64,000 nt of DNA from NCBI GenBank assembly GCA_028710985.1, contig JAQTTB010000001.1, positions 655,073-719,072 of the forward strand. The letters run 5' to 3'. The DNA is from Patescibacteria group bacterium. Its GTDB lineage: Bacteria; Patescibacteriota; Patescibacteriia; JAHJFT01. This document shows, one piece after another, positions 2,205 through 47,882 of this stretch (the first letter of the stretch is position 1; the number at the start of each line of letters is the position of its first letter). The notes under the pieces are model-generated. The model was not told the DNA's origin. It saw nothing but the letters and a program-made list of their open reading frames with translations, and did not search any database. The position numbers and the translations under genes were made by a program.

Positions 2205-3635
2205 ATGGAGCCCTGCGAGTTAAATATCCAGGAGGCCCACGCGCGCCTCAAATCCAAAGAATTGAGCGCCGCCGAGCTGACTGATTCCTGCCTCAAAGCG
2301 ATCAAGAAAAAAGACGGAAAAATTTCCGCGTTTCTTGAGGTTTATGAAAAAGAGGCAAAAGAGCGCGCCCGTGAAATTGACGAAAAAATTGCGCGGACCG
2401 GAGAAGTCGGGCCGCTCGAGGGCATTCCAATCGCCATCAAGGACAACATGATGTACACCGGCCATGTTTCTTCCGCCGGTTCAAAAATCCTGGAAAAATA
2501 CCAGGCAACTTATACTGCCACCGCGGTGGAGCGTCTCATCGACGCCGGCGCCGTTATCATCGGCCGGACTAATATGGATGAGTTTGCCATGGGTTCGTCA
2601 ACCGAAAATTCGGCCTACGGACCGACCAAAAATCCCCATGATTTAAAACGCGTGCCCGGCGGATCGTCCGGCGGCTCGGCCGCCGCGGTCAGCGCCAACA
2701 TGTGCCTCGCGGCGCTTGGCTCGGATACCGGCGGTTCAATCCGCGAGCCGGCGGCTTTTTGCGGCGTGGTTGGTCTAAAGCCAACCTATGGCCGTGTTTC
2801 GCGCTCCGGCCTGATTGCCATGGCCTCAAGCCTGGATCAGATCGGCCCGCTTGCCAAGACCGCGCAGGACGCGTCCTGGGCGGCGCGCGCCATCGCCGGC
2901 ATTGATGCCAAAGATTCCACGAGTGTGAATGCCGAACCCATACCCGCCGAATTCCCGGACAATATCAAGGGAATAAAAATCGGCGTGCCGGCCGAATTTT
3001 TCGGCAAAGGGCTGGACTCCGGAGTCGAGAAAGCCGTGCGCCAAGCCATTGCGAAGCTCGAGAAACTCGGCGCCAAGATTATTGACATTAAACTGCCGTA
3101 CACTGAATATGGGCTCGCGGTATATTATATAATCATGCCGTGCGAAGTGAGTTCCAATCTCGCGCGCTTTGACGGCATGCGCTACGGCAAAAGAGAGGCT
3201 GGCAAGAATCTTGCCGAAGTTTATAAAATTACCCGCGGAAAAAATCTCGGTCCCGAGGTGCGCCGCCGCGTCATGCTCGGAACGTACGCACTATCGGCCG
3301 GATATTATGACGCTTATTATACCCGCGCCCAGAAAGTCCGCACACTCATCCGCAATGATTTTAAGGAAGCGTTCAAGAAAGTGGACTGCATCGTCGGCCC
3401 GACCGCGCCGACCGCGGCATTCAAGCTCGGTGAAAAATTCAATGATCCGCTCACTATGTATCTTTCCGACATTTACACCGTCACCGCCAATGTCGCCGGC
3501 GTTCCGGCAATTTCTATTCCCTGCGGCCTGGCGGATAAACTGCCGGTTGGCCTGCAAATTATGGGCAATCATTTTGATGAAAAAACAATTCTGCGCGTCG
3601 CGAATGCGTACGAGCTTGTAGGAAGTAGCTTGTAG
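2205..3635 (+). CDS. gatA: Glu-tRNA(Gln) amidotransferase subunit A (amidase signature family)
   Basis: Amidase signature GGSSGGSAAAV with a Ser-cisSer-Lys context. Length is 476 aa and the gene follows gatC. Confidence 0.9.
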   Translation: MEPCELNIQEAHARLKSKELSAAELTDSCLKAIKKKDGKISAFLEVYEKEAKERAREIDEKIARTGEVGPLEGIPIAIKDNMMYTGHVSSAGSKILEKYQATYTATAVERLIDAGAVIIGRTNMDEFAMGSSTENSAYGPTKNPHDLKRVPGGSSGGSAAAVSANMCLAALGSDTGGSIREPAAFCGVVGLKPTYGRVSRSGLIAMASSLDQIGPLAKTAQDASWAARAIAGIDAKDSTSVNAEPIPAEFPDNIKGIKIGVPAEFFGKGLDSGVEKAVRQAIAKLEKLGAKIIDIKLPYTEYGLAVYYIIMPCEVSSNLARFDGMRYGKREAGKNLAEVYKITRGKNLGPEVRRRVMLGTYALSAGYYDAYYTRAQKVRTLIRNDFKEAFKKVDCIVGPTAPTAAFKLGEKFNDPLTMYLSDIYTVTANVAGVPAISIPCGLADKLPVGLQIMGNHFDEKTILRVANAYELVGSSL

Positions 3636-3667
3636 GTTGTAGGAATTAGGAAGTTAGCTTGTAGGTT

Positions 3668-4036
3668 ATGGAATCAGATATTATTAAAAGTTATCGAGAT
3701 TTGGTTGTTTGGCAGAAGTCAATGGATTTAGTAACCAAGATTTACGAATTGACTGAGCAGTTTCCGAGGTCGGAAATATTCGTTCTCACTGCGCAGATGA
3801 GACGTTGTGCTATATCGATTCCCTCAAATATCGCCGAGGGTAGAAGACGGGGTAGTCGGATTGAATTTCGACGCTTTCTAATTATCGCGTTTGGTTCCGG
3901 GGCCGAACTTGAGACCCAGCTCGAAATAGCTAAGAGATTATCTTTTGGAAAAAATTTTGACTTCAGTGCAATCGAATTATTACTCAATGAAATAATGAAG
4001 ATGCTCAATAAGATGATTGCGACATTGAGCAAGTAG
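3668..4036 (+). CDS. Four-helix-bundle protein of the 23S rRNA intervening-sequence protein family
   Basis: 122 aa with the characteristic LVVWQKS ... IPSNIAEG ... GSGAELETQL pattern. The gene is flanked by imperfect inverted repeats at 3613-3667 and 4034-4080. Confidence 0.7.
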   Translation: MESDIIKSYRDLVVWQKSMDLVTKIYELTEQFPRSEIFVLTAQMRRCAISIPSNIAEGRRRGSRIEFRRFLIIAFGSGAELETQLEIAKRLSFGKNFDFSAIELLLNEIMKMLNKMIATLSK

Positions 4037-4087
4037 GCGTATTTCCTACAAGCTGATTTCCTAACCTCCTAATTCCTAAAACCAAGC

Positions 4088-4558
4088 ATGATTACAGTTG
4101 ACTACTCATATTTCGAAAACACGTCATTAATTGAGCTCCTCATCTATTTCTTGATTGGCGCAATTATTATATTTTTTCTTGTTTGGAGTATTAATTTGCT
4201 TCGTCGTTTTCTCCGCCGACCCGAGCTTGAGGGCCTGGACCGGAAGGGGATTCAAACGCGCTGGCAAGAAATTGAATCCATGCTTGGAAAGGGAAGCGAG
4301 ATGACCGACAAGGTGGCCATTCTTGAAGCCGATAAGCTTTTAGACCACGCGCTCAAAGCCATGGCCATGCCCGGCACCACGCTCGGCGAGCGGCTCAAAG
4401 TCGCGACTTATAAATTTCCCAAGCTTCATCGCGTCTGGTGGTCGCACAAACTACGCAATCAGCTGGTGCACGAAGCGAGTTTCAGCGTCAGCCACCGTTC
4501 CGCCAAGTCGGCGATTGACGGTTTTAAAAACGCGCTCAAAGAACTTGGCGTACTTTAA
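4088..4558 (+). CDS. Hypothetical protein with an N-terminal transmembrane segment
   Basis: 156-aa ORF with one hydrophobic helix (LLIYFLIGAIIIFFLVW). No family was recognised. It is bounded by gcttgtagg-type repeats. Confidence 0.4.
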   Translation: MITVDYSYFENTSLIELLIYFLIGAIIIFFLVWSINLLRRFLRRPELEGLDRKGIQTRWQEIESMLGKGSEMTDKVAILEADKLLDHALKAMAMPGTTLGERLKVATYKFPKLHRVWWSHKLRNQLVHEASFSVSHRSAKSAIDGFKNALKELGVL

Positions 4559-4655
4559 CGAGCCTGCCTACCGGCAGGTAGGCTTGTAGCTTTTTAGCTT
4601 GTAGGAATTTTCCATTCGCAAGCTACCAGCTACAAGCTACCAGCTACAAGCTAGT

Positions 4656-5432
4656 ATGATTCCATATCTTCACCTAACAACCTTTAATCTCGGACCGATT
4701 CAATTTCAAGTCTGGGGAACGTTCGTCGCCCTGGGATTTATTGCCGCGATTTTATGCGCCTGGGTTTTTCTCAAACGCCGCGGTCTGAATCACGAAGCCG
4801 TCTGGGATATCAGTTTCGCCGGCCTTGTCGGCGCGGTCATCGGCGCCCGGCTCGGGCACGTGTTTTTTTACGAATGGCATTATTACGCCGCTCACGCGGC
4901 CGAGATATTTTACGTCTGGAAGCCGGGATATTCTTTTTTCGGCGGCTTGTTCGGAGTGATCGCCGGGTATTTGATTGTCGCCCGGATCAAGAAACTGAAT
5001 TATTTTAAATACGCGGACGCGCTGGCTTTCGCCGCGCCTCTCGGCATCGCGGTCGGGCGAATCGGGTGTTTTTTGATAAATGACCATCCGGGCATACGCA
5101 CCGCGTCGTTTCTGGGCGTTCATTATCCGCTCGGCGACCGTTTTGACCTCGGCCTCCTGGAATCCGCGGCCGCCGCGATCCTGTTCATCATTTTTATTAT
5201 GCTCGCGCGCAAAATGCGGACAACCGGTTTTTTCACCGGGCTGTTTCTTATTATGTATGGCGCAGTGCGTTTTGGCCTTGATTTTTTGCGGATCTGGGAC
5301 GGTCCGGGTGCGGAGGCGCGCTACGCGGGCCTCACACCGGCTCAATATTTTTCCATTGCAATTTTTATTATTGGAATCGCGTTGTTATTAAAACTGCGCG
5401 TAAAAAAAATAAATGTCCAAACACAAGCCTAA
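4656..5432 (+). CDS. lgt: Prolipoprotein diacylglyceryl transferase
   Basis: Lgt signature GRIGCF, multi-pass membrane topology, 258 aa. Confidence 0.85.
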   Translation: MIPYLHLTTFNLGPIQFQVWGTFVALGFIAAILCAWVFLKRRGLNHEAVWDISFAGLVGAVIGARLGHVFFYEWHYYAAHAAEIFYVWKPGYSFFGGLFGVIAGYLIVARIKKLNYFKYADALAFAAPLGIAVGRIGCFLINDHPGIRTASFLGVHYPLGDRFDLGLLESAAAAILFIIFIMLARKMRTTGFFTGLFLIMYGAVRFGLDFLRIWDGPGAEARYAGLTPAQYFSIAIFIIGIALLLKLRVKKINVQTQA

Positions 5433-7943: not shown

Positions 7944-8690
7944 ATGGCCAAGGAGAATAAAAGTATATTTGGAGAAAATCCAACGTTATCATTTTTTCTA
8001 GGATTATTTGTCGGTCTCGCGTCATTCAGCACCATCGCGGCAATTATTCTGGTTCTGGCGATGTATTCCGGCAATCCGTTAAGTTTCGCCAAGAACGATG
8101 CGGCCGGCGATGCGGTTGCCGCTGGAGCGCAGGAGGCCGTCGCCGCCGAAGAGGACGTCGGAGTCGCCGAGGTTCCGGCAGTGGGTGAAACGGATTATGC
8201 CGTTGGTCCCGAAGACGCATCAATTACACTGATTGAATATTCGGATTTTGAATGTCCGTATTGCCTAAGTTACAAAACCACCATGGATCAGGTGCTCAAG
8301 GACTATGACGGAAAGATTCGTTTCGTTTTCCGTCATTTCCCGCTCTCATTCCATGAGAACGCGCGCGGCGCGGCCATGGCCGCCGAATGTGCCGGCGAGC
8401 AAGGCAAATTTTGGGAAATGTATGAAAAGATTTTTGACGCCAATGCTGATGGAACCATGGGAACCGATGTCTGGAAACAGGCGGCTAAGGAAATCGGGTT
8501 AAATACCGGCGATTTCAATGTCTGTCTTGATGAGAACCGTTACGACAGTAAGATAAACGAGGAAATGCAGACTGGCGCCCAAGCCGGCGTCCGCGGCACT
8601 CCGGCCACATTCATCAACGGCCAGATGGTTTCCGGAGCCCTGCCGATTGCGGATCTTGAAGCGATCTTGGACCAGATTCTGGCACAGTAG
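7944..8690 (+). CDS. DsbA-family thiol:disulfide oxidoreductase with an N-terminal membrane anchor
   Basis: CPYC active site, a thioredoxin-fold pattern and one N-terminal transmembrane helix. Confidence 0.75.
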   Translation: MAKENKSIFGENPTLSFFLGLFVGLASFSTIAAIILVLAMYSGNPLSFAKNDAAGDAVAAGAQEAVAAEEDVGVAEVPAVGETDYAVGPEDASITLIEYSDFECPYCLSYKTTMDQVLKDYDGKIRFVFRHFPLSFHENARGAAMAAECAGEQGKFWEMYEKIFDANADGTMGTDVWKQAAKEIGLNTGDFNVCLDENRYDSKINEEMQTGAQAGVRGTPATFINGQMVSGALPIADLEAILDQILAQ

Positions 8691-8756
8691 ATTGGTAATC
8701 AAAAAGCTCGTCTATACATACATGGACGGGCTTTTTTAGTCAAAGAATCGGTTAAT

Positions 8757-8830
8757 CGGTGAATCAGTGAATCGGGCTTAAATGGTCTAAGCCGGTTCCG
8801 ATCAACCGATTCACCGGTTAACCGATATCC
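8757..8830. repeat. Palindromic element of the ggtgaatc/cggtt family with no gene between its arms
   Basis: Arms atcggttaatcggtgaatc and gattcaccggttaaccgat are near-perfect reverse complements around a ~45-bp hairpin core. The same arm motif flanks the four-helix-bundle gene at 34423. Confidence 0.6.
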
Positions 8831-8847
8831 CGTGTCGCCTTGACGAT

Positions 8848-9035
8848 TTTTAACAGTTGTGATACCGTTGTTCGTGCCGCCCTATGCAACAACAACGCAT
8901 GGGCGGCCCCATGCCAAAACCGGGAGGTGTGACTTGGGGCAGAAAGTAGCGCGCGCCCCTCCGTAGGGAGGAACGAGAAGGATCGGGCAAAAAGATCAAG
9001 GTCTTAGAGTCGCTCCCTGAGCGACTCTATTTTTT
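8848..9035 (+). ncRNA. Candidate small structured RNA: putative promoter, stable hairpins and an intrinsic terminator
   Basis: TTGACG-17nt-TACCGT promoter-like site at 8848-8876. Strong hairpin gccgccctatgc-aacaacaac-gcatgggcggc. It ends with the hairpin gagtcgctccctgagcgactc plus a T-run at 9007-9035. No ORF is present. Confidence 0.3.
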
Positions 9036-9045
9036 ATGAAAAATA

Positions 9046-9074
9046 TTGAAAAATGGCCCAAAATGGGATATAAT
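9046..9074 (+). promoter_or_regulatory. Sigma70-type promoter for the glutaredoxin-like gene
   Basis: TTGAAA (9046-9051), 17-nt spacer, TATAAT (9069-9074). Confidence 0.6.
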
Positions 9075-9100
9075 CACCACATAATAAATAAGCCAAATCT

Positions 9101-12128: not shown

Positions 12129-12159
12129 ATCTAGATTCTAGGTACTAGATTCTAGATAC
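12129..12159. repeat. ctagattctag-type short palindromic repeats immediately upstream of the 12174 gene
   Basis: The sequence tctagattctaggtactagattctagatact is present here. A related copy, gctagattctatattctagattcta, is at 39843-39867. Confidence 0.5.
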
Positions 12160-12173
12160 TAAAATATTTATCT

Positions 12174-14454: not shown

Positions 14455-14471
14455 AACAACCCGCTCGTATT

Positions 14472-14627
14472 GTCATCCTGAGTCCCGACATCCGCGAAGC
14501 GGAATGTCGGGGCGAAGGATCTCACAGTCTCGAGATGAGCGTCCACGGCGCCACCATGGTCATGGCGAGATGCGAGATCCTTCGCCCCTCACCCCTCGAC
14601 AAGCTCGAGGCTCGGGCTCAGGATGAC
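14472..14627. repeat. Inverted pair of GTCATCCTGAG-[hairpin]-CGAAGGATC nested repeat elements
   Basis: Copy a1 at 14472-14523 is on the plus strand and copy a2 at 14574-14627 is on the minus strand. Inner hairpins are tcccgacatccgc-gaag-gcggaatgtcggg and cctcgagcttgtcgagggg. Confidence 0.7.
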
Positions 14628-14650
14628 AATATTATGGATGTGTATGCGAT

Positions 14651-14688
14651 AAAAAAACCGGCCGTCAATCTTGCGATTGAACGGCCGA
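14651..14688 (-). terminator. Intrinsic terminator of the minus-strand GC-rich cassette
   Basis: On the minus strand, hairpin ccggccgttcaatcgcaagattgacggccgg followed by T7. Confidence 0.6.
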
Positions 14689-14704
14689 TGAGAGCGTTAT
14701 CGAT

Positions 14705-14851
14705 TTACGGGAGTGGCGGAAATCGTATGGCCGGTCCCGTTACCGATGCATCGATGGGAATTATGAACCAGAGGATGATCGGCAGAAAGAACATGATGAG
14801 AAATAATACTAGCAAGAGCGGGTAGTCGCGTGGTTTGTCGTTTGGTTGCAT
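14705..14851 (-). CDS. Small hydrophobic peptide (48 aa), translationally coupled downstream of the 14865-15719 gene
   Basis: Strong SD TAGGAGGAA 7 nt upstream of the ATG. The peptide MQPNDKPRDYPLLLVLFLIMFFLPIILWFII is transmembrane-like. It is followed by the terminator at 14651-14688. At 48 aa it is below the ORF-track cutoff. Confidence 0.35.
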   Translation of the reverse strand: MQPNDKPRDYPLLLVLFLIMFFLPIILWFIIPIDASVTGPAIRFPPLP

Positions 14852-15719: not shown

Positions 15720-15823
15720 GACGAACCTCCTTTTTGGTTGTCAGAGAACAATCAGTCGGTTTCCCGACTTTTCATCACATTATAGTGGAAAAAGCCCATT
15801 TTGTCAAGCCATTCACTCTTATC

Positions 15824-15939
15824 GTCATTGCGAGCCCCGAGCTTGTCGAGGGGCGAAGCAATCCCGTTGCAGGCGCTTCAAAATAGGTACAGGATTGCTT
15901 CGGTCGTCCCGACTGCTGTCGGGACTCTCTCGCAATGAC
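15824..15939. repeat. Inverted pair of GTCATTGCGAG-[hairpin]-CGAAGCAATCC nested repeat elements
   Basis: Copy b1 at 15824-15864 is on the plus strand with inner hairpin ccccgagcttgtcgagggg. Copy b2 at 15892-15939 is on the minus strand with inner hairpin gtcccgacagcagtcgggac. The inner hairpins match those of the a1/a2 pair, with the flanks and cores swapped. Confidence 0.7.
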
Positions 15940-16008
15940 GATAAGAAAAGAAGAAGATAAAGCGTCGGGGCTCTACCCAAATTACCGATTTTTTGTTAAA
16001 ATCAACCC

Positions 16009-23901: not shown

Positions 23902-24292
23902 AAAACTTGAGCATCCGGCCGATCTGCGCCTCCGCGTTTTTGGCCGCGATATGGCCGAACTTTTTCAAAACGCGCTCTTCGGTATGTTTGAAAGCATTGA
24001 GCCGGATATTGCTTCACGGGATTTGGTGCGCCGCAAAATTCAGGTTCAGGCCGGTGATCCGGAGCTGCTGCTTGTGGATTTTTTGAGCGAAGCTCTGCTT
24101 CAGAGCGACACTCATGACGAGGCGTATCATGATGCCGAAATTGATAATCTTGCCGCTGACTCGGTTACCGCGACCCTGATCGGTTATCCGATCCGCGGTT
24201 TCCGGCAGGAGATAAAAGCCGTTACTTATCATGGATTTAAAATTGAGCAAACGGCCGAGGGGCTCACGGCGGAAATAATTTTTGATATATAA
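23888..24292 (+). CDS. Archease (RtcB activator)
   Basis: N-terminal LEHPADLRLRVFG archease motif, ~135 aa, immediately upstream of rtcB with an overlapping stop and start. Confidence 0.65.
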   Translation: MEKYKKLEHPADLRLRVFGRDMAELFQNALFGMFESIEPDIASRDLVRRKIQVQAGDPELLLVDFLSEALLQSDTHDEAYHDAEIDNLAADSVTATLIGYPIRGFRQEIKAVTYHGFKIEQTAEGLTAEIIFDI

Positions 24293-25745
24293 AATGGATA
24301 TAAAGCAATTAAAACGAATTGAGGATTATCTCTACGAAATTCCGGCGGATTCCCGCCGCGGCATGCTGGTTCCGGCGCGCATTTATGCCACCGCGCGCAT
24401 GCTTGAGGAGATTTCCAGCGACAGTTCTCTCGATCAGCTTATCAACGTTGCCGCGCTCCCGGGTATTCAAAAATATGCGCTCGCCATGCCCGACATTCAC
24501 GAAGGCTACGGATTTCCCATCGGCGGCGTCGCGGCCATGGATTTTTCCGAAGGCGTGGTTTCGCCCGGCGGCGTGGGATATGACATAAACTGCGGCGTGC
24601 GACTTCTCCGGAGCGGATTGAAAGTTGAAGAAATTTCGGAAAAATTAAAATCACTCGCGCATCAGATCAGCCGCGATGTGCCAAGCGGGGTCGGCCGGGG
24701 CGGTGAGATTGTTCTCACTCCCGAAGATCTTGACGAGGTTTTGAAAAAAGGAGTAAAGCGCCTGCTTGAACTTGGCTGGGCGGAAAAAAACGATCTGGAA
24801 AACATTGAAGAAAACGGCTGCATGAAAAACGCGGATCCCGAAGCCGTGAGCGCGCAGGCCAAAAAGCGCGGGCGAGACCAGCTCGGCACGCTCGGCTCAG
24901 GTAATCATTTTTTGGAAATCCAGGCGGTTGATCAAATCTACGACGAGCCGCTTGCCAAAGAACTCGGCATTGAAACCGGCCGCGTTATGGTGATGATTCA
25001 CACCGGCTCGCGCGGCTTGGGCCATCAGGTCTGCACGGATTATGTAAAAATCATGGCGCCAAAACTCGCGAAATGGGGGATTGAGCTCCCGGACCGCGAG
25101 CTTGCCTGCGCCCCGATTTCATCCCCCGAAGGGAAAAGCTATCTTGCGGCCATGGCCGCGGCCGCGAACTTTGCCTGGTCAAACCGCCAGATGATTACGC
25201 ACCTTATCCGCAATGCCTGGAAGCGCATCCTTGAACCCGCCGGGCTCGATCCGCGGCTTGATACAGTCTATGATGTTGCCCACAATATTGCTAAAATTGA
25301 AGAGCACATAATCAAGGACAAAAAAGTTAAACTTTGCGTGCACCGCAAGGGCGCGACGCGCGCCTTTGGTCCGGGCCGGCCCGAGCTCAACGAGCTCTAC
25401 CGGCGCATCGGACAGCCGGTGCTGATTCCCGGAACCATGGGAACCTCATCGTATCTGCTCATGGGCACGGAAATGGCGGAAAAAACCACCTTTGGTACGG
25501 TGTGCCACGGCGCCGGCCGCCGCATGAGCCGGCACGAGGCCAAACGCAGAATCACCGGCCCCGAAGTGCGCAAAGAGCTTGAATCGCGCGGCATTATTGT
25601 CGAATGCGCTTCATCCGCCGGTCTGGCCGAAGAAGCGCCGCTCGCATACAAGGACGTGGATGAAGTGGTGGACGTTGTCGTGCGCGCCGGATTGGCTAAA
25701 CGCGTTGCGAAGTTAAAGCCAATTGCCGTGATTAAGGGAGGGTAG
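24282..25745 (+). CDS. rtcB: RNA-splicing ligase RtcB (3'-phosphate/5'-hydroxyl RNA ligase)
   Basis: Conserved metal and GTP site motifs: GYDINCG, HTGSRGLGHQ, HNIA ... and GTVCHGAGR. 487 aa. Confidence 0.9.
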   Translation: MIYKMDIKQLKRIEDYLYEIPADSRRGMLVPARIYATARMLEEISSDSSLDQLINVAALPGIQKYALAMPDIHEGYGFPIGGVAAMDFSEGVVSPGGVGYDINCGVRLLRSGLKVEEISEKLKSLAHQISRDVPSGVGRGGEIVLTPEDLDEVLKKGVKRLLELGWAEKNDLENIEENGCMKNADPEAVSAQAKKRGRDQLGTLGSGNHFLEIQAVDQIYDEPLAKELGIETGRVMVMIHTGSRGLGHQVCTDYVKIMAPKLAKWGIELPDRELACAPISSPEGKSYLAAMAAAANFAWSNRQMITHLIRNAWKRILEPAGLDPRLDTVYDVAHNIAKIEEHIIKDKKVKLCVHRKGATRAFGPGRPELNELYRRIGQPVLIPGTMGTSSYLLMGTEMAEKTTFGTVCHGAGRRMSRHEAKRRITGPEVRKELESRGIIVECASSAGLAEEAPLAYKDVDEVVDVVVRAGLAKRVAKLKPIAVIKGG

Positions 25746-34365: not shown

Positions 34366-34422
34366 CAAATATCGGTGAATCAGTGAATTGGTGAATCGGT
34401 TTATAAAACCATTATATTTCCC

Positions 34423-34812
34423 ATGAGCCATTCAATGAAATTTAGTGATCTGGAAATATGGAAAATCGGATTCAAGTCGCTATCGGAAATCTACGCGTTA
34501 ATTAAAAACTTTCCTAAATTTGAACAGTTCGCGTTAGCTAGCCAGTCAATTAGATCAGCAAATTCGATCATTGCCAATATCGCTGAAGCTCATGGTAGAT
34601 ATTTTTTCAACGACAAGATACGGATATTGTATATCGCACGCGCCGAGGCCGAAGAGGTTCAGAGTCATTTAATGGTAGCTTGCTCGCAAGAATATATTTC
34701 AAAAGAAATTGCCAACCAGTTAATTGAAAGATATGAAGTTCTTATTAAAAAAATCAATTCATATATTTCATACCTGTCGCAGAAACGTCCTGACTCACCG
34801 ATTAACCGATAA
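34423..34812 (+). CDS. Four-helix-bundle protein of the 23S rRNA intervening-sequence protein family
   Basis: 129 aa with the same family pattern as 3668-4036 (IWKIGFKSLSEIY ... NIAEAHGRY ... AEAEEVQSHL). It is flanked by inverted repeats of the ggtgaatcggtt family at 34371-34402 and 34797-34823. Confidence 0.7.
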   Translation: MSHSMKFSDLEIWKIGFKSLSEIYALIKNFPKFEQFALASQSIRSANSIIANIAEAHGRYFFNDKIRILYIARAEAEEVQSHLMVACSQEYISKEIANQLIERYEVLIKKINSYISYLSQKRPDSPINR

Positions 34813-34824
34813 CCGATTCACCGT

Positions 34825-35314: not shown

Positions 35315-36580
35315 ATGTTAGATATAAAATTTATCCGCGAAAATCCGGACAAAGTTATAAAAGCGCTGGCAACCCGCGGGTATAAGGCTGACATCAAATC
35401 AATTTTGAAAATCGACGACAAGCGCCGTGAATTTTTGCATAAAATCGAACAGGCCAAAGCCGAGCAAAACAATGTTAGTAAAGAAATTGGCAAGATGAGC
35501 AGTAAAGATAAGAAAGCCGCCCTCGCGCGGATGAAAAAAGTTAAAGATTCGGTCCGTAGCGAAGAGGAAAAGCTTGAAAAAGTAGAATCCGAACTCGCGG
35601 TCAAGCTGGTTGATTTGCCCAACATTCCGCTTGAGGATGTGCCGGTCGGCAAGGATGAATCATTTAATGTAGTTCTGCGCGGCGATGAGCCGCCCAAAGC
35701 CCTGGGCTTTGAGCCCAAGGATCACATCGCCCTTGGCGAATCCCTGGACCTGATTGACGTTGAGCGCGCCGCCAAAGTATCGGGTTCGCGTTTTTGTTAT
35801 TTAAAAAATCAAGCTGTGATGCTGCAGTTCGCTCTCGCGCGCTATGCCGTGGACACGGCTGCGGAACAGGGATTCATGCCCATGATTCCGCCGGTTCTTA
35901 TAAAGCACGAGGCAATGCGGGCCATGGGCTATCTTGAGCACGGCGGCGATGAGGAGACCTATCAATTCGAAGAAGATAATTTGATTCTTGTGGGCACGTC
36001 CGAGCAATCCGGCCTGCCGTATCACATGAATGAGACTTTGGACGAAAAAGAATTGCCCAAACGCTACATTTGCTATTCAACCTGCTTCCGCCGCGAAGCC
36101 GGAAGCTACGGCAAAGACGTGCGCGGCATTTTGCGCGTGCATCAGTTTGATAAACTGGAAATGCTTTCCGTCACCGCGCCGGAAAAATCTCGCGCCGAGC
36201 ACGAGCTCATAATTTCGATTCAGGAAAAACTGGTCAAGGGCCTGGGGCTGCCGTATCGCGTGGTCGCGCTCTGCACCGGCGATCTCGGCGCGCCTTCGGC
36301 CAAAACAATTGATATTGAAACCTGGATGCCGTCGCAGAAGCGCTTCCGCGAAACCCACTCATCGTCCAATTGTACGGATTTCCAGGCGCGTCGTCTTAAT
36401 CTGCGCTGCAAGACAAAGTCCGGCAATGTCTTTTGCCACACCCTGAACGGCACGGCCTTTGCCATGGGCCGCATCCTGATCGCCATTCTGGAAAACTTCC
36501 AGCAAAAAGACGGGTCAATAAACATTCCCGAGGTATTGCACAAGTATCTTGATTTCACAAAAATTCCATTCGGCAAATAA
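35315..36580 (+). CDS. serS: Seryl-tRNA synthetase
   Basis: N-terminal coiled-coil arm and class II catalytic motifs. 421 aa. Confidence 0.9.
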   Translation: MLDIKFIRENPDKVIKALATRGYKADIKSILKIDDKRREFLHKIEQAKAEQNNVSKEIGKMSSKDKKAALARMKKVKDSVRSEEEKLEKVESELAVKLVDLPNIPLEDVPVGKDESFNVVLRGDEPPKALGFEPKDHIALGESLDLIDVERAAKVSGSRFCYLKNQAVMLQFALARYAVDTAAEQGFMPMIPPVLIKHEAMRAMGYLEHGGDEETYQFEEDNLILVGTSEQSGLPYHMNETLDEKELPKRYICYSTCFRREAGSYGKDVRGILRVHQFDKLEMLSVTAPEKSRAEHELIISIQEKLVKGLGLPYRVVALCTGDLGAPSAKTIDIETWMPSQKRFRETHSSSNCTDFQARRLNLRCKTKSGNVFCHTLNGTAFAMGRILIAILENFQQKDGSINIPEVLHKYLDFTKIPFGK

Positions 36581-36599
36581 ATTCATTCTTTATTGTCAT

Positions 36600-36675
36600 T
36601 CAAGGCGGGGCTAGAGAGCCCCGCCTATTATTAATAAATTTTTTATAAATAGGTGGGGCTCTCCAGCCCCACCGA
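36600..36675. repeat. Inverted pair of GC-rich hairpins (ggcggggctagagagccccgcc and ggtggggctctccagccccacc)
   Basis: The two hairpins are near reverse complements, separated by an AT-rich spacer, at the left edge of the GC-rich paralog cassette. Confidence 0.55.
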
Positions 36676-36773
36676 AAATAAAAAAATCCGGCCCAGCAGG
36701 GGTCGGATGTGCGGTTGGGGAAAGAACATGGGGGCGTCTATCGTTCGGCCAAGCCTCAGCCGGCCGAATCGCG

Positions 36774-37670
36774 CTATTCGGGGTCGGCTTCGCCTAGGCA
36801 GTGCTTGCGTAGGTAGGCGAGAAGGTCTTGCAATGCGGCCGGTGATGCTGCCCGTGACACTACTTTATCGTCGGCTTCAATTATCAGCTTCCTGACGCTG
36901 TCCTTGTCGCCGCGTGCATGAGCCGCGAGAACACCATCCATCCATCCGGTAAAAGAAAATGGAAATACTTCTCCGCAGCTTTTCATGGTGGTGTATATCA
37001 GACCGAATGTGATGGGATCCAGCGGAATCACGCCCGGCTTGGGCTCGGCCTTGGTCATCTGGTTCAGCAGGTCGTACAGGATGTCGGTGATTTTCGCGGC
37101 ATCCTTGTATGGTGTCGATGACGTATCCCAATACCGGGGGTTTACCTTCGGTAAGAACTCGGCTAATATCTCATCTCGATGCCATGGATGGCCGCACAAG
37201 GCGGTATCGAGGATGGCGCAGAGTCCGTCCATGAAACGAATCTTCAGTTCCTTGTCCCTCTGATCATTGATGGTTAATACGATCTTGAGAAGGTCGCGGA
37301 GCGGGATGTGGCCGGCCGGTGCAGACGGGTTGGCCGCCACGGCAGTTTCCGTCCCGGGGAAGCGTCCGATGGCGTTGAAGATCTTCTGGAGCAGGGCGGC
37401 GGGGATCGGATCGCCCTTGTGCGCGCCCTCGCGTGAGACCAGATTCTCATCCTGGTCGGTGTCAACGGCGAGCCGGTTCTCAACCGACTTCCGGTCGCCG
37501 ACCATGAACTCGGCGATGGAGATTTCCACCTTGTCGCGGTTGCCCTGGCGGCTTCCGCTCTTGGTGACGCGGAAGTAAGGATTGCCCTGGGCGTCGCAGT
37601 TTTCCTTTGAAACCTGCAGGGCATAGAGACGGGCGGTCTCTTCGGGGTTGAGGTCGATTCTCAAAAACAT
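36774..37670 (-). CDS. Hypothetical protein, paralog 1 of a tandem pair
   Basis: 298 aa. The C-terminal ~90 aa align with the 37874-38512 product (AEPKPGVIPLDP ... AYLRKHCLGE versus AEPKPTAIPLTAD ... AHLRKHCLGE). GC-rich. Confidence 0.55.
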   Translation of the reverse strand: MFLRIDLNPEETARLYALQVSKENCDAQGNPYFRVTKSGSRQGNRDKVEISIAEFMVGDRKSVENRLAVDTDQDENLVSREGAHKGDPIPAALLQKIFNAIGRFPGTETAVAANPSAPAGHIPLRDLLKIVLTINDQRDKELKIRFMDGLCAILDTALCGHPWHRDEILAEFLPKVNPRYWDTSSTPYKDAAKITDILYDLLNQMTKAEPKPGVIPLDPITFGLIYTTMKSCGEVFPFSFTGWMDGVLAAHARGDKDSVRKLIIEADDKVVSRAASPAALQDLLAYLRKHCLGEADPE

Positions 37671-38589: not shown

Positions 38590-38705
38590 TGTCAAGAAAT
38601 AAGCTAAAATATCGAATGTCCAATGCCTGAATGTCTAATGTCTAACCCGATTAATTATTGAGTCATTGGGCATTATTTAGGCATTCGCTATTAGGCATTA
38701 GTCAT
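38590..38705. repeat. Imperfect palindrome built from aatgtc/taggcatt units
   Basis: gaatgtccaatgcctgaatgtctaatgtctaa ... cattgggcattatttaggcattcgctattaggcatt; the left half is close to the reverse complement of the right half. Confidence 0.5.
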
Positions 38706-38707
38706 TT

Positions 38708-39835: not shown

Positions 39836-39876
39836 ATATTGCGCTAGATTCTATATTCTAGATTCTAATTATAACC

Positions 39877-43697: not shown

Positions 43698-44440
43698 AAT
43701 CTTGTTTTTATAACTAAATAGGTGAAGATAATTATGGCTTTATAAATTCGCGGCAGACGGATCATGGGCTCTTGGGCGAGCCGCCAGAGCCATTCCAGGC
43801 CGGTTTTGCGCATTATTTTCGGCGCTCTTCTTATTCTACCGCAAATAAAGTCAAAAGTCCCGCCCACGCCGATTGCGAGCTTAACCGACGGCAGGCGTGC
43901 CTTAAAATCGTTAATGAATTTTTCCTGCCACGGGTGCCCCCGTCCGATTATTAGTATACTCGGATTTGCGGATGCGATTTTTTCAATCAGCCCAGTCTCA
44001 ATCTCCCACTCACCTGCAAATTTCGCGAGCCGTCCGCCCGACTCGGCTCCGCAGATGTTAATTCCCGGAAAAGTGTCTTTGATAATTTCGGCAGTTCGTT
44101 TGGCGATTCCCGGCAGTCCGCCGAGCAAAAAAACCGGCTGATTTCGTTTTTTCGCGAGTTCCAAAATGTCCCAAACCAGATCCGCGCCGGAAACGCGGTT
44201 GATTTTGCCAAGTCCCAGAATCGTGGCGGCCATAATTATGCCGAATCCGTCGCTCACCGCAATATCCGCGCGGTTTAAAATATCGCGGAATTCGGTGTCG
44301 TTCTGCGCGTCAACAATCATTTCCGGATTCGGAGTGACGATATAGTGAAATCCAGTGGAAGTCAAAAAGCTTTCCGTCTTGCTGATCAGCGCGTCGCGCT
44401 CGAGATTATCAAGATTAATGCCAAGAATATTAATTTTCAT
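43676..44440 (-). CDS. WecB/TagA/CpsF-family glycosyltransferase
   Basis: 254 aa with a family pattern resembling N-acetylmannosaminyltransferase. Confidence 0.75.
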   Translation of the reverse strand: MKINILGINLDNLERDALISKTESFLTSTGFHYIVTPNPEMIVDAQNDTEFRDILNRADIAVSDGFGIIMAATILGLGKINRVSGADLVWDILELAKKRNQPVFLLGGLPGIAKRTAEIIKDTFPGINICGAESGGRLAKFAGEWEIETGLIEKIASANPSILIIGRGHPWQEKFINDFKARLPSVKLAIGVGGTFDFICGRIRRAPKIMRKTGLEWLWRLAQEPMIRLPRIYKAIIIFTYLVIKTRLCFSRKK

Positions 44441-44984
44441 GTTTCAGTTCAAAACTTTTTATAATCGTGTATTCCGCGCCGTCTGCCTCAAGATTGCTCT
44501 GCATTAGTTCAAAGCTCCGGACCGTCCACGCGAGCCCGGGAACTTCCGGCAGATCCAAATTGAGCCGTGTGCCGGAATCTTTGTTGCGTGCCACGGTCAG
44601 GTGAGTCCGCCACGGCCGGCGGTCAATTTCAAATCCGGCCCGTTCAAGCTGGCGGCCGATTTCGGTTTGTATGTCGGCAAGAGAATTTTCAGTTCCAAGG
44701 CCGATGAATACAACGCGCGGGAATTCAAGATCCGGAAACCCGCCCCAATCCCCTGTCTGTATTTTTGAGCCGCTAAATTGACCGGCGGCATGTTCGCCGA
44801 TCTTGATAATTCTTTCAATGTCATCCTGCTCCAGTTCGCCTAAAAAATGCAGAGTCAGGTGCACGGATTGCGGCTTAACCCAGCGCAGACCGGGAAAATC
44901 ATTGTCTTCGCGCGCCCTTGTCAGAATCGGAGCCAATTCACGCTTGATTTCATCCGGCAAATTAATGGCCAAAAATACTCTCAT
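44430..44984 (-). CDS. thpR: RNA 2',3'-cyclic phosphodiesterase (2H family, LigT/ThpR)
   Basis: Two HxT/S motifs (HLTLHF and HLTVAR). The start was placed at MRVFLAINLP. Confidence 0.7.
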   Translation of the reverse strand: MRVFLAINLPDEIKRELAPILTRAREDNDFPGLRWVKPQSVHLTLHFLGELEQDDIERIIKIGEHAAGQFSGSKIQTGDWGGFPDLEFPRVVFIGLGTENSLADIQTEIGRQLERAGFEIDRRPWRTHLTVARNKDSGTRLNLDLPEVPGLAWTVRSFELMQSNLEADGAEYTIIKSFELKHEN

Positions 44985-45014
44985 ACAGGCATATTTTAGC
45001 AAAAATAAACGGGT

Positions 45015-47747: not shown

Positions 47748-47805
47748 ATCTTTTCCATTACCGAAACGTTAATCAGATAGGCATGGCGGTTGAATTCAAG
47801 CTACT

Positions 47806-47882
47806 GGATTCCCGCTTTCGCGGGAATGACGATGAGCGGTGTATTCCGTTTTTTTCGTCATTCCCGCGCAGGCGGGAATCCA
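47806..47882. repeat. Inverted pair of GTCATTCCCGCG(N)AGCGGGAATCC mini-repeats
   Basis: Copy d1 at 47806-47830 is on the minus strand. Copy d2 at 47857-47882 is on the plus strand. They are separated by a short spacer ending in T7. Confidence 0.7.

Follow-up and report, generated by a model that had tools for sequence, protein, structure and literature searches.

The question raised by this locus is why two genes of the four-helix-bundle (4HB) family known from 23S rRNA intervening sequences (IVS) are found between ordinary protein-coding genes, each of them enclosed by inverted repeats. The DNA is a 64,000-nucleotide stretch of Patescibacteria group bacterium (contig JAQTTB010000001.1, positions 655,073 to 719,072), which will be called the window. 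The two genes are located on its plus strand at 3668-4036 (gene 1) and 34423-34812 (gene 2), and each forms a cassette with two flanking arms made of tandem 7-8-nt units. The explanation which we favour, with modest confidence, is that these are promoterless, probably mobile cassettes of the IVS type residing in mRNA operons, the stem of their paired arms presumably being cut by RNase III. About 80% of 80 related genes from other genomes are packaged in this way, an indication that the cassette type is widespread and, apparently, has not been described before.

The proteins encoded by gene 1 (122 aa) and gene 2 (129 aa) were compared with family hidden Markov models (HMMs). Gene 1 matched PF05635 with an E-value of 6.9e-38 (129.6 bits, cut-off 33.8) and TIGR02436 with 124.2 bits (cut-off 24). 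For gene 2 the PF05635 match had an E-value of 1.5e-28 (99.5 bits) and the TIGR02436 match a score of 94.3 bits. Thus, the assignment of both genes to the 23S rRNA IVS family, proposed in an initial annotation of this DNA, was confirmed by two models above their curated cut-offs. The two proteins share merely 35% identity. Homologues of Xanthomonas XCC0516 possess the conserved motif (G/Q)xxRxxxSxxxNxxE (PMC3936711). Gene 1 carries it as QxxRxxxSxxxNxxE, with the residues Q43, R46, S50, N54 and E57 invariant in an alignment of gene-1 homologues, and the counterpart in gene 2 is SQSIRSANSIIANIAE. The top PDB match of gene 1 was 2GSC, the structure of XCC0516 (E 8.7e-25, five chains), a protein described as a pentamer of four-helix bundles in a work that appears as a reference in PMC3936711.

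The 5' arm of cassette 1 (3613-3667, plus strand) consists of the tandem units GCTTGTAGG, TTGTAGG, AATTAGG and AAGTTAG, and is complemented by the 3' arm (4041-4083, plus strand), which reads CCTACAAGC ... CTAACCTCCTAATTCCTAA. The core arms 3635-3657 and 4061-4083 are 91% complementary over 23 nt, the arms 3646-3665 and 4045-4064 are 90% complementary over 20 nt, and an outer inverted pair (3609-3642 and 4623-4656) shows 82% complementarity over 34 nt. In cassette 2 the 5' arm (34371-34401, plus strand) begins 6 nt past the lysS stop codon and contains four 8-nt units (CGGTGAAT, CAGTGAAT, TGGTGAAT, CGGTT). Its 3' arm (34797-34824, plus strand) spans the last codons and the stop codon of gene 2 and ends one base before the ATG of the next gene (34825); the pairing arms are 34373-34400 and 34797-34823. 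Tandem Repeats Finder reported a period of 7/14 at 3613-3665 and 4619-4653 and a period of 8 at 8745-8775, 8798-8826, 34371-34400 and 34797-34823. In local alignments the arms scored 36 (cassette 1) and 28 (cassette 2), compared to a mean of 14.1 with a standard deviation of 2.3 for 2794 random pseudo-genes of the window. Exact copies of GCTTGTAGG are confined to 3614-4605 of the 64 kb, and nine clustered matches (five exact, four with one mismatch) all fall inside 3614-4651. The GGTGAATCGGTT family is confined to 8750-8815 and 34374-34822. Consequently, the imperfect inverted repeats described in the initial annotation do bound both genes, and they are more specifically inverted arrays of tandem 7-8-nt units. 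RNA folding of the flanks, which had been proposed along with that description, showed in both the minimum free energy (MFE) and the centroid structures that the flanks of each cassette pair together, 3613-3667 with 4041-4083 in cassette 1.

Both cassettes share with known IVSs the tandem heptamer or octamer arrays ahead of the open reading frame (ORF), as in the Coxiella IVS, and the long-stem terminal inverted repeats around the insert, as in 23S IVSs in general. The location in rRNA expected of a 23S IVS (helix 9, 25 or 45) was not found for the window cassettes. Cassette 1 is flanked by gatA and the gene of a 156-aa protein, cassette 2 by lysS and a cytidylyltransferase gene (Pfam). The proposal that an IVS-type arrangement occurs here at protein-coding intergenic sites is therefore borne out, since inverted arrays bound both 4HB genes between housekeeping genes. 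No sigma70-like promoter was detected ahead of either 4HB ORF in the window. The terminator scan did not call the cassette arms, and the array hairpins have no T tails. The suspicion that the repeats are ordinary terminators present at many genes was thus correct as far as array hairpins do occur at other junctions, but these lack T tails and were not called as terminators. The longest strings common to copies are 13-18 nt, the copies sharing only the unit motif, and no target-site duplication was evident at the arm boundaries of the window copies.

Cassette 1 interrupts an operon. Upstream lies the host gene gatA (2205-3635, plus strand; PF01425 Amidase, E 1e-152), and downstream, outside the cassette, follows a host gene for a 156-aa membrane protein without Pfam or NCBIfam match (4088-4558, plus strand). 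Its homologue is found in the order gatC-gatA-[156-aa homologue] in about 45 of 80 GatA loci of other genomes, often followed by lgt, and none of these 80 related loci contains gatB after gatA. The initial annotation had expected gatB at this place; the conserved order is instead gatC-gatA-[156-aa membrane protein]-lgt. The gap between gatA and the 156-aa homologue amounts to 2 nt in L003, the closest gatA locus, and to 25 nt in L014, and the gap between the homologue and lgt is 3-6 nt in L031, L044 and L050. Because gatA and the 156-aa homologue are adjacent in relatives (2 nt in L003), cassette 1 is, as judged by synteny, an insertion of ~450 bp at a normally tight junction. The proposed interruption of the gatCA-lgt interval is accordingly real, but the break is situated between gatA and the 156-aa gene and not at a gatB site. 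The tight junctions of the relatives further imply that the lineage of the window has gained both the ~450-bp cassette and, between the 156-aa gene and lgt, an ORF-less hairpin of ~75 nt with the same unit. The final six codons of gatA (LVGSSL) and its TAG stop codon are encoded by the 5' arm, and in tblastn searches the similarity of GatA to its relatives stops at about residue 470 of 476. A GatA search of genome contigs for relatives with an empty site gave nothing above 62% identity, and the Logan contigs of the same organism were identical; the insertion is thus deduced from deeper synteny. In 882 kb of other GatA loci, mostly from Patescibacteria, no 4HB gene was present.

In order to determine how general this arrangement is, 80 metagenomic 4HB loci, 46-66% identical to gene 1 and obtained by a metagenome scan with the alignment of gene-1 homologues, were analyzed. 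Flank energies calculated with RNAduplex were dropped as a statistic. They were confounded by GC content and by spurious ORFs in high-GC loci (control minimum -80 kcal/mol) and were therefore replaced by counts of 8-mers common to the upstream 80 nt and the reverse complement of the downstream flank, with 173 ORFs of the same loci serving as control. Nearly all of the 80 loci contained an upstream array of a 7-8-nt unit and the reverse complement of that unit downstream. The units vary by locus (GCTTTTAG, GGGATTAG, GTGGTTAG, GCCACTAG, CAGTGGA, AGTGGGA and others), the dominant period being 7 and the second 8. At least one shared 8-mer was found in 64 of the 80 loci and at least three in 50. 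Only six of the 173 control ORFs reached three, and four of these six are related to cassettes: gene 1 of the window, the 156-aa gene sharing its arm, one gene of the GxxExxY family and one that lies between two hairpins.

The median aligned arm has a length of 32 nt. Some 10 nt separate the 5' arm from the ATG. The 3' arm begins at the stop codon and in 22 of 48 loci overlaps the coding sequence. The 5' arm contains 9.8% C compared to a background of 21%, and its GC skew of +0.55 is positive in 42 of 48 loci. TAG and CTA occur in a ratio of 215:69 in the 5' arm and of 65:203 in the 3' arm. Of the 4HB genes, 65% have stop codons in every frame within the 49 nt ahead of them, versus 17% of the controls. 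As judged from these frames, the 5' arm can end an upstream reading frame in any register, as it does for gatA here and for rpiB in L083. In 61 of 64 cases the closest upstream ORF has the same orientation as the 4HB gene, the median gap being 52 nt, and the downstream ORF is co-oriented in 36 of 52. Co-orientation, short gaps and the missing promoter make the 4HB genes look promoterless and reliant on read-through from the host genes. An identical 4HB protein, WP_010994075.1, is encoded beside insertion sequence (IS) elements on the plasmids gamma (L166) and alpha (L167) of Nostoc sp. PCC 7120. These two copies have a downstream CTTCTGC/CCTCTGC heptamer array in common and differ in their upstream sequences, which suggests that the gene may have been duplicated or moved recently together with its 3' array.

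The repeat unit follows the gene that it encloses. The two cassettes of this genome carry unrelated units; thus, the unit is not a property of the host. The units of the gene-1 subfamily are TAGCTTNT/TAGGAAT, and gene-1 homologues at other junctions keep units of the TAGGAATTAG/GCTTGTAGG type, for example between rpiB and rpe in L083 (66% identity). Gene-2 homologues with 58-74% identity possess GTTAATC/GTGAATC-type units at four junctions, namely HIT|FdtA, MacB|MacB, acylphosphatase|rplI and x|sigma-70. The 6-mer similarity of the arms climbs with protein identity (rho 0.25 for all pairs, 0.32 among pairs of similar GC content). These comparisons of sequences show a unit family that travels with its ORF subfamily between genomes and insertion sites. 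A second cargo family displays the same architecture. Genes of the GxxExxY family (TIGR04256 / PF13366, PD-(D/E)XK fold), which is unrelated to 4HB, are flanked by inverted (T)ACGAAA(N) arrays in six genomes and occupy tight co-oriented junctions (GalT|TIM, wzm|wzt, PolX|NUDIX, TraC|TraG and sigma-70|x). Examples in other Patescibacteria are located at L083 797-1204, in L170-L177 and at L185 2966-3382. The arrangement is therefore a cassette format and not the peculiarity of one gene.

Arrays of this kind also occur without an ORF, and the window contains at least five of them, beside metG, alr, an ftsQ-like gene, a dsbA-like gene and lgt. The junction between the 156-aa gene and lgt is filled by a hairpin of the GCTTGTAG family (4581-4654; -44.7 kcal/mol, z -5.6), detected by Tandem Repeats Finder at 4619-4653. 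A terminator-like GC-rich hairpin with a T run (4558-4587, plus strand), called in the terminator scan, directly follows the 156-aa gene. The repeat block noted initially at 4561-4655 does contain repeats of the first family, but consists of two parts, this terminator-like hairpin and the array hairpin at about 4581-4654. A hairpin of the GGTGAATC/GGTTAATC family is located at 8746-8826 (-42.5 kcal/mol, z -6.3), with arms at 8747-8775 and 8798-8826 that are 86% complementary and enclose a 22-nt loop. The irregular 18-mer ATCGGTGAATCAGTGAAT of this hairpin recurs 25 kb away in the 5' arm of cassette 2. A third unit family, AATGYCT / TTAGGCATT, forms a 94-nt hairpin directly upstream of alr (38613-38706, z -3.9). 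Two short arrays consist of the heptamer CTAGATT, a self-complementary one between metG and cvpA (12129-12161) and a second at the junction of alr and the ftsQ-like gene (39844-39867). No cognate small ORF for the AATGYCT or CTAGATT units was present within the 64 kb.

The ORF-less hairpins form a common class. Period-7/8 arrays occur at 1.7 per 10 kb in the window and at 1.8 per 10 kb in the 882 kb of GatA loci lacking 4HB genes. In the latter we counted 74 inverted array pairs with a partner within 700 nt, 38 of which have an arm gap of at most 150 nt. The hairpin 8746-8826 had been read as an empty third copy of the second repeat. The repeat is indeed present with nothing inside, but it is a clean hairpin of this common class and hence need not be an excision scar; it may equally be what is left of a decayed cassette, the precursor of one or its non-autonomous derivative. 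Of 58 other loci, about 20 had a clustered array of the same unit no more than 3 kb away from the cassette. The rpiB|rpe junction contains a 4HB cassette in L083 (2472-2891) and an ORF-less hairpin (ATACGGATGATACTGATAATAC... and its complement, with unrelated arms) in the Doudnabacteria locus L170 (3127-3249). Operon junctions appear to be recurrent targets. In the Moranbacteria loci L018, L027, L029, L042 and L047 gatC is bracketed by AT-rich 7-8-nt arrays of the AAATTTAAAATT type which share inverted 8-mers. In some lineages, ordinary short genes are evidently flanked by array hairpins on either side.

According to the IVS-type reading, each cassette comprises a promoterless TIGR02436 4HB ORF between two arrays in inverted orientation, each with about 3-6 tandem units of 7-8 nt. 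The 5' arm is G/T-rich, C-poor and stop-rich and reaches to about 10 nt from the ATG; its complement, the 3' arm, starts at the stop codon. Such cassettes are inserted at the normally tight junctions of co-oriented housekeeping genes and would be transcribed together with the host operon. The arms may then pair as a stem of about 25-35 bp which, by analogy with the ORF-bearing 23S IVS of Coxiella, RNase III would cut, releasing the 4HB message and separating the flanking cistrons. The stop-rich 5' arm would permit landing at or in a gene end in any frame, and here it supplies the stop codon of gatA. Movement may proceed by recombination of the arms with an ORF-less hairpin of the same unit, which would act as landing pad.

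Several results weigh against the IVS-type reading. Arm mismatches showed no wobble bias on the sense strand (69 G:T versus 85 A:C, p = 0.23), in a test weakened by the ability of tandem arrays to pair in several registers. Selection for an RNA stem is consequently not demonstrated, and the complementarity could be kept at the DNA level. Although its arms pair, the whole-element fold of cassette 2 was no better than that of shuffled sequences (z -1.2). No shared 8-mer was found in 16 of the 80 loci, and the GxxExxY units TACGAAAT are free of stop codons, for which reason a universal rule of stops in every frame was rejected. Four plasmid copies from cultured bacteria, three of them cyanobacterial and one from Gemmatirosa, have a clear array downstream only. 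On these plasmids (Nostoc, Calothrix and Gemmatirosa) the upstream side is often rearranged, with IS elements adjacent in both Nostoc copies; the two-armed form is thus not universal. The Pfam sweep and a signature regular expression revealed no RNase III gene in the 64 kb, and no recombinase is encoded near the cassettes in the window. Presence/absence polymorphism between close strains was not found, and mobility is therefore concluded from the different junctions occupied in different genomes. The initial suggestion of a small mobile or RNA-processed cassette remains the best reading in so far as the cassettes are discrete and repeat-bounded and cassette 1 is an insertion (2-nt junction in L003), but the wobble test lends no support at the RNA level.

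Given the result of the wobble test, a role at the DNA level with the arms as protein-binding terminal arrays stays a serious rival. Here the cassettes would be selfish elements comparable to repetitive extragenic palindromic (REP) sequences with their associated tyrosine transposases (RAYT), or REPINs. The arrays would bind the encoded protein, e.g., one heptamer per subunit of the pentamer, the ORF-bearing copy would be autonomous and the ORF-less hairpins non-autonomous, and arm complementarity would be a by-product of inverted binding arrays. We consider this possible, but on the whole unlikely. It agrees with the finding that every ORF family or subfamily has its own unit family, that same-unit ORF-less hairpins exist in the same genome for both window families, that same-unit arrays cluster within 3 kb in about 20 of the 58 other loci, and that the arm mismatches show no RNA wobble bias. 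It also fits the five chains of XCC0516, the best PDB homologue, and its pentameric description in the work referenced in PMC3936711, the GGGAATC array, one of 186 in the Xanthomonas genome, that overlaps the XCC0516 start (PMC4692102), and the layout of RAYT genes with REP hairpin flanks in the same data set (L006, L016, L051). On the other hand, neither nuclease nor recombinase activity is known for a four-helix bundle, and an architecture shared by two unrelated folds (4HB and the PD-(D/E)XK-like GxxExxY) suits cargo better than a dedicated transposase. Moreover, array hairpins are equally dense in the 882 kb free of 4HB genes (1.8 per 10 kb), and the AATGYCT and CTAGATT units are without cognate ORF in 64 kb. 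A somewhat less probable extension unites ORF-bearing cassettes and ORF-less arrays in one system, in which the pentameric 4HB protein, and likewise the nuclease-fold GxxExxY protein, would recognise its cognate arm as RNA or DNA and promote spread, maintenance or processing. If true, this would be an autonomous/non-autonomous pairing like that of RAYT and REPIN. It would jointly explain the rRNA IVSs, the heptamer arrays of Xanthomonas, Nostoc (short tandemly repeated repetitive sequences, STRR) and Geobacter, and the scatter of small genes in operons, cas loci and Patescibacteria.

The abundance of array hairpins can also be read the other way round, namely as that of ordinary host intergenic elements acting as cistron separators, mRNA stabilisers or translation insulators, in whose loops 4HB genes are tolerated or retained; there would then be neither cassette nor co-mobility. 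The 74 inverted period-7/8 pairs (38 with gaps of at most 150 nt) at junctions lacking a small ORF in 882 kb speak for this reading, as do the unrelated ORF-less hairpin at rpiB|rpe in L170 in place of the 4HB cassette of L083 and the five window arrays beside metG, alr, the ftsQ-like and dsbA-like genes and lgt. We nevertheless regard it as improbable, as it leaves two cassettes with unrelated units in one genome, homologues that keep the unit of their ORF subfamily at different junctions and in different genomes, and arm similarity correlated with protein identity even at similar GC content. Finally, the 4HB proteins might be accessory factors of the Avd type belonging to a diversity-generating retroelement (DGR), with the repeats as its template and variable machinery. 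There is a weak similarity to the bAvd models, PF22296 giving 33 and 28 bits and NF033474 27.8 and 23.6 bits for genes 1 and 2, respectively. These scores are far below the curated cut-off of 40 bits and the equivalog cut-off of 80 bits, the neighbours are housekeeping genes, and a Pfam sweep covering essentially all ORFs of the 64 kb detected no reverse transcriptase. With sub-cut-off scores and no reverse transcriptase, the Avd/DGR reading has a negligible probability and is effectively refuted for the window.

The same Pfam sweep assigned only housekeeping genes to the window, among them tRNA synthetases, mreBC, PBP2, clpB, priA, ribosomal proteins and rpoA. Together with the RNase III signature search it detected no rnc, gatB, reverse transcriptase, transposase or integrase gene in the 64 kb. 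A scan of the window at the Rfam gathering thresholds revealed no rRNA and no other Rfam family, and ARAGORN found no tRNA. Two RNA-repair genes are encoded, RtcB (24282-25745, E 5e-178) and a LigT-like 2'-5' RNA ligase/phosphoesterase (44430-45002), with no established link to the cassettes. RNase III products would not qualify as RtcB substrates. Just past the ORF-less hairpin 8746-8826 lies a structured intergenic stretch of 175 nt (8862-9036, plus strand; MFE -69.7 kcal/mol, z -3.3), with a strong intrinsic terminator at its end (9005-9029). This stretch, which may encode a small RNA, had no Rfam match even at E <= 1, and an Rfam E-value scan of 8690-9100 gave chance hairpin matches only. 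An ordinary bidirectional terminator (36593-36684), made of two back-to-back GC-rich hairpins that have A/T tails, separates serS (35315-36580) from a convergent gene on the minus strand (36774-37670) and exemplifies the genuine terminators of this genome. Separate dispersed palindromes without tandem units were observed at 14468-14631, 15817-15946 and 47805-47882. These three sites contain nested TTGTCATCCTGAG.../GGGGCGAAGGATCTC, CGTCATTGCGAG (18 nt, 100% complementary) and GGATTCCCGC...GCGGGAATGACGA (28 nt, 93% complementary), and look like another REP-like hairpin family. The ORF 14535-14825 inside the first palindrome is probably spurious.

The nature of rRNA IVSs, the conserved ORF present in some of them and their spread have been questions since about 1990. 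The present findings suggest that rRNA IVSs and the heptamer arrays of cyanobacteria, Xanthomonas and Geobacter belong to a single cassette type which also colonises ordinary operons. Such cassettes alter C-termini, gatA ending here in repeat-encoded residues, and with the proposed RNase III step they would split operon transcripts. The genomes of Patescibacteria, although streamlined and supposed to contain little selfish DNA, harbour them frequently, and the covariation of arm and cargo makes the problem testable in tractable organisms. The cassettes can also pass for functionally linked genes. '23S_rRNA_IVP' genes inside cas operons, e.g., between cmr3 and cmr2, were read as a functional association (PMC3936711); our data suggest opportunistic insertion rather than a functional link. 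Literature searches brought up no paper in which 4HB or GxxExxY genes located outside rRNA are presented as repeat-bounded cassettes, and the Geobacter genome supplements do not mention the 4HB family.

Among known systems, the ORF-bearing 23S IVSs of Coxiella, alongside which Leptospira is named, show the closest set of features: a PF05635 ORF, stem-forming terminal repeats, upstream tandem heptamers and no own promoter. In Coxiella burnetii the helix-45 IVS contains an S23p (PF05635) ORF preceded by two to three tandem GACAGAT heptamers, whose copy number varies between strains, and RNase III cuts within its 28-bp terminal stem at the first repeat (PMC4990558). This IVS is regarded as selfish and horizontally spread, and it is transcribed with its host gene as it has no promoter of its own (PMC4990558). 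In contrast, the host transcript in the window is a protein-coding operon, whose upstream ORF is moreover terminated by the 5' arm; cleavage by RNase III is experimental in Coxiella and is postulated here. In X. campestris 186 GGGAATC heptamer arrays, about 70 of them in convergent inverted pairs, are transcribed and unexplained in function; the array between bccP (XCC0517) and XCC0516 overlaps the XCC0516 start, and the 4HB family is not mentioned (PMC4692102). The present arrays resemble these and the Nostoc/Anabaena GGGGAYT repeats of the STRR type in being intergenic tandem heptamers with one G-rich, C-poor strand. The Xanthomonas arrays were read as G-quadruplex motifs, whereas most of the units described here, e.g., GCTTGTAG and GGTGAATC, cannot form a G-quadruplex.

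Like REP/RAYT (REPIN) elements, the cassettes have inverted hairpin repeats around a small gene and dispersed ORF-less intergenic copies in the same genome. Unlike these, they encode a 4HB or GxxExxY protein instead of an IS200-like Y1 transposase, the window proteins matching only 4HB and Avd models, and their arms are sequence-variable tandem 7-8-nt arrays instead of a fixed palindrome. Genes of the IS200-like/RAYT type with inverted fixed palindromes as flanks and the HxH motifs 'HIHILLQG' and 'NHYHFVLKQ' do occur in Patescibacteria (L006 2866-3375, L016 2754-3419, L051 102-776), as assigned by reading their sequences rather than by an HMM. The Correia/NEMIS miniature inverted-repeat transposable elements of Neisseria are near-identical copies with defined terminal inverted repeats, a TA target duplication and no ORF, and their stem is an RNase III substrate. 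Both kinds are short intergenic inverted-repeat elements co-transcribed with their neighbours, a feature of Correia elements that presumably also applies to the cassettes, for which neither a target duplication nor an identical family in high copy number was observed. The Avd protein of DGRs is a relative of PF05635 (PMC10053308). The two are homologous in fold, both being pentameric four-helix bundles, but the window proteins score below the equivalog cut-off, and neither a reverse transcriptase nor template and variable repeats are present in the window. Integron cassettes are likewise promoterless single ORFs with imperfect inverted repeats that depend on upstream host transcription; the cassettes described here differ by the lack of an integrase in the window, by arms on both sides in place of a downstream-only attC and by being scattered singly instead of stacked. 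Intrinsic terminators differ as well, since the arms were not called as a GC-rich stem with T tract, the sole call here being the separate hairpin 4558-4587. An IVS with a PF05635 ORF in rRNA is already known; what is new is best described as array-bounded promoterless gene cassettes of the IVS type that are inserted in housekeeping operons and occur together with hairpins of the same repeat families which lack an ORF.

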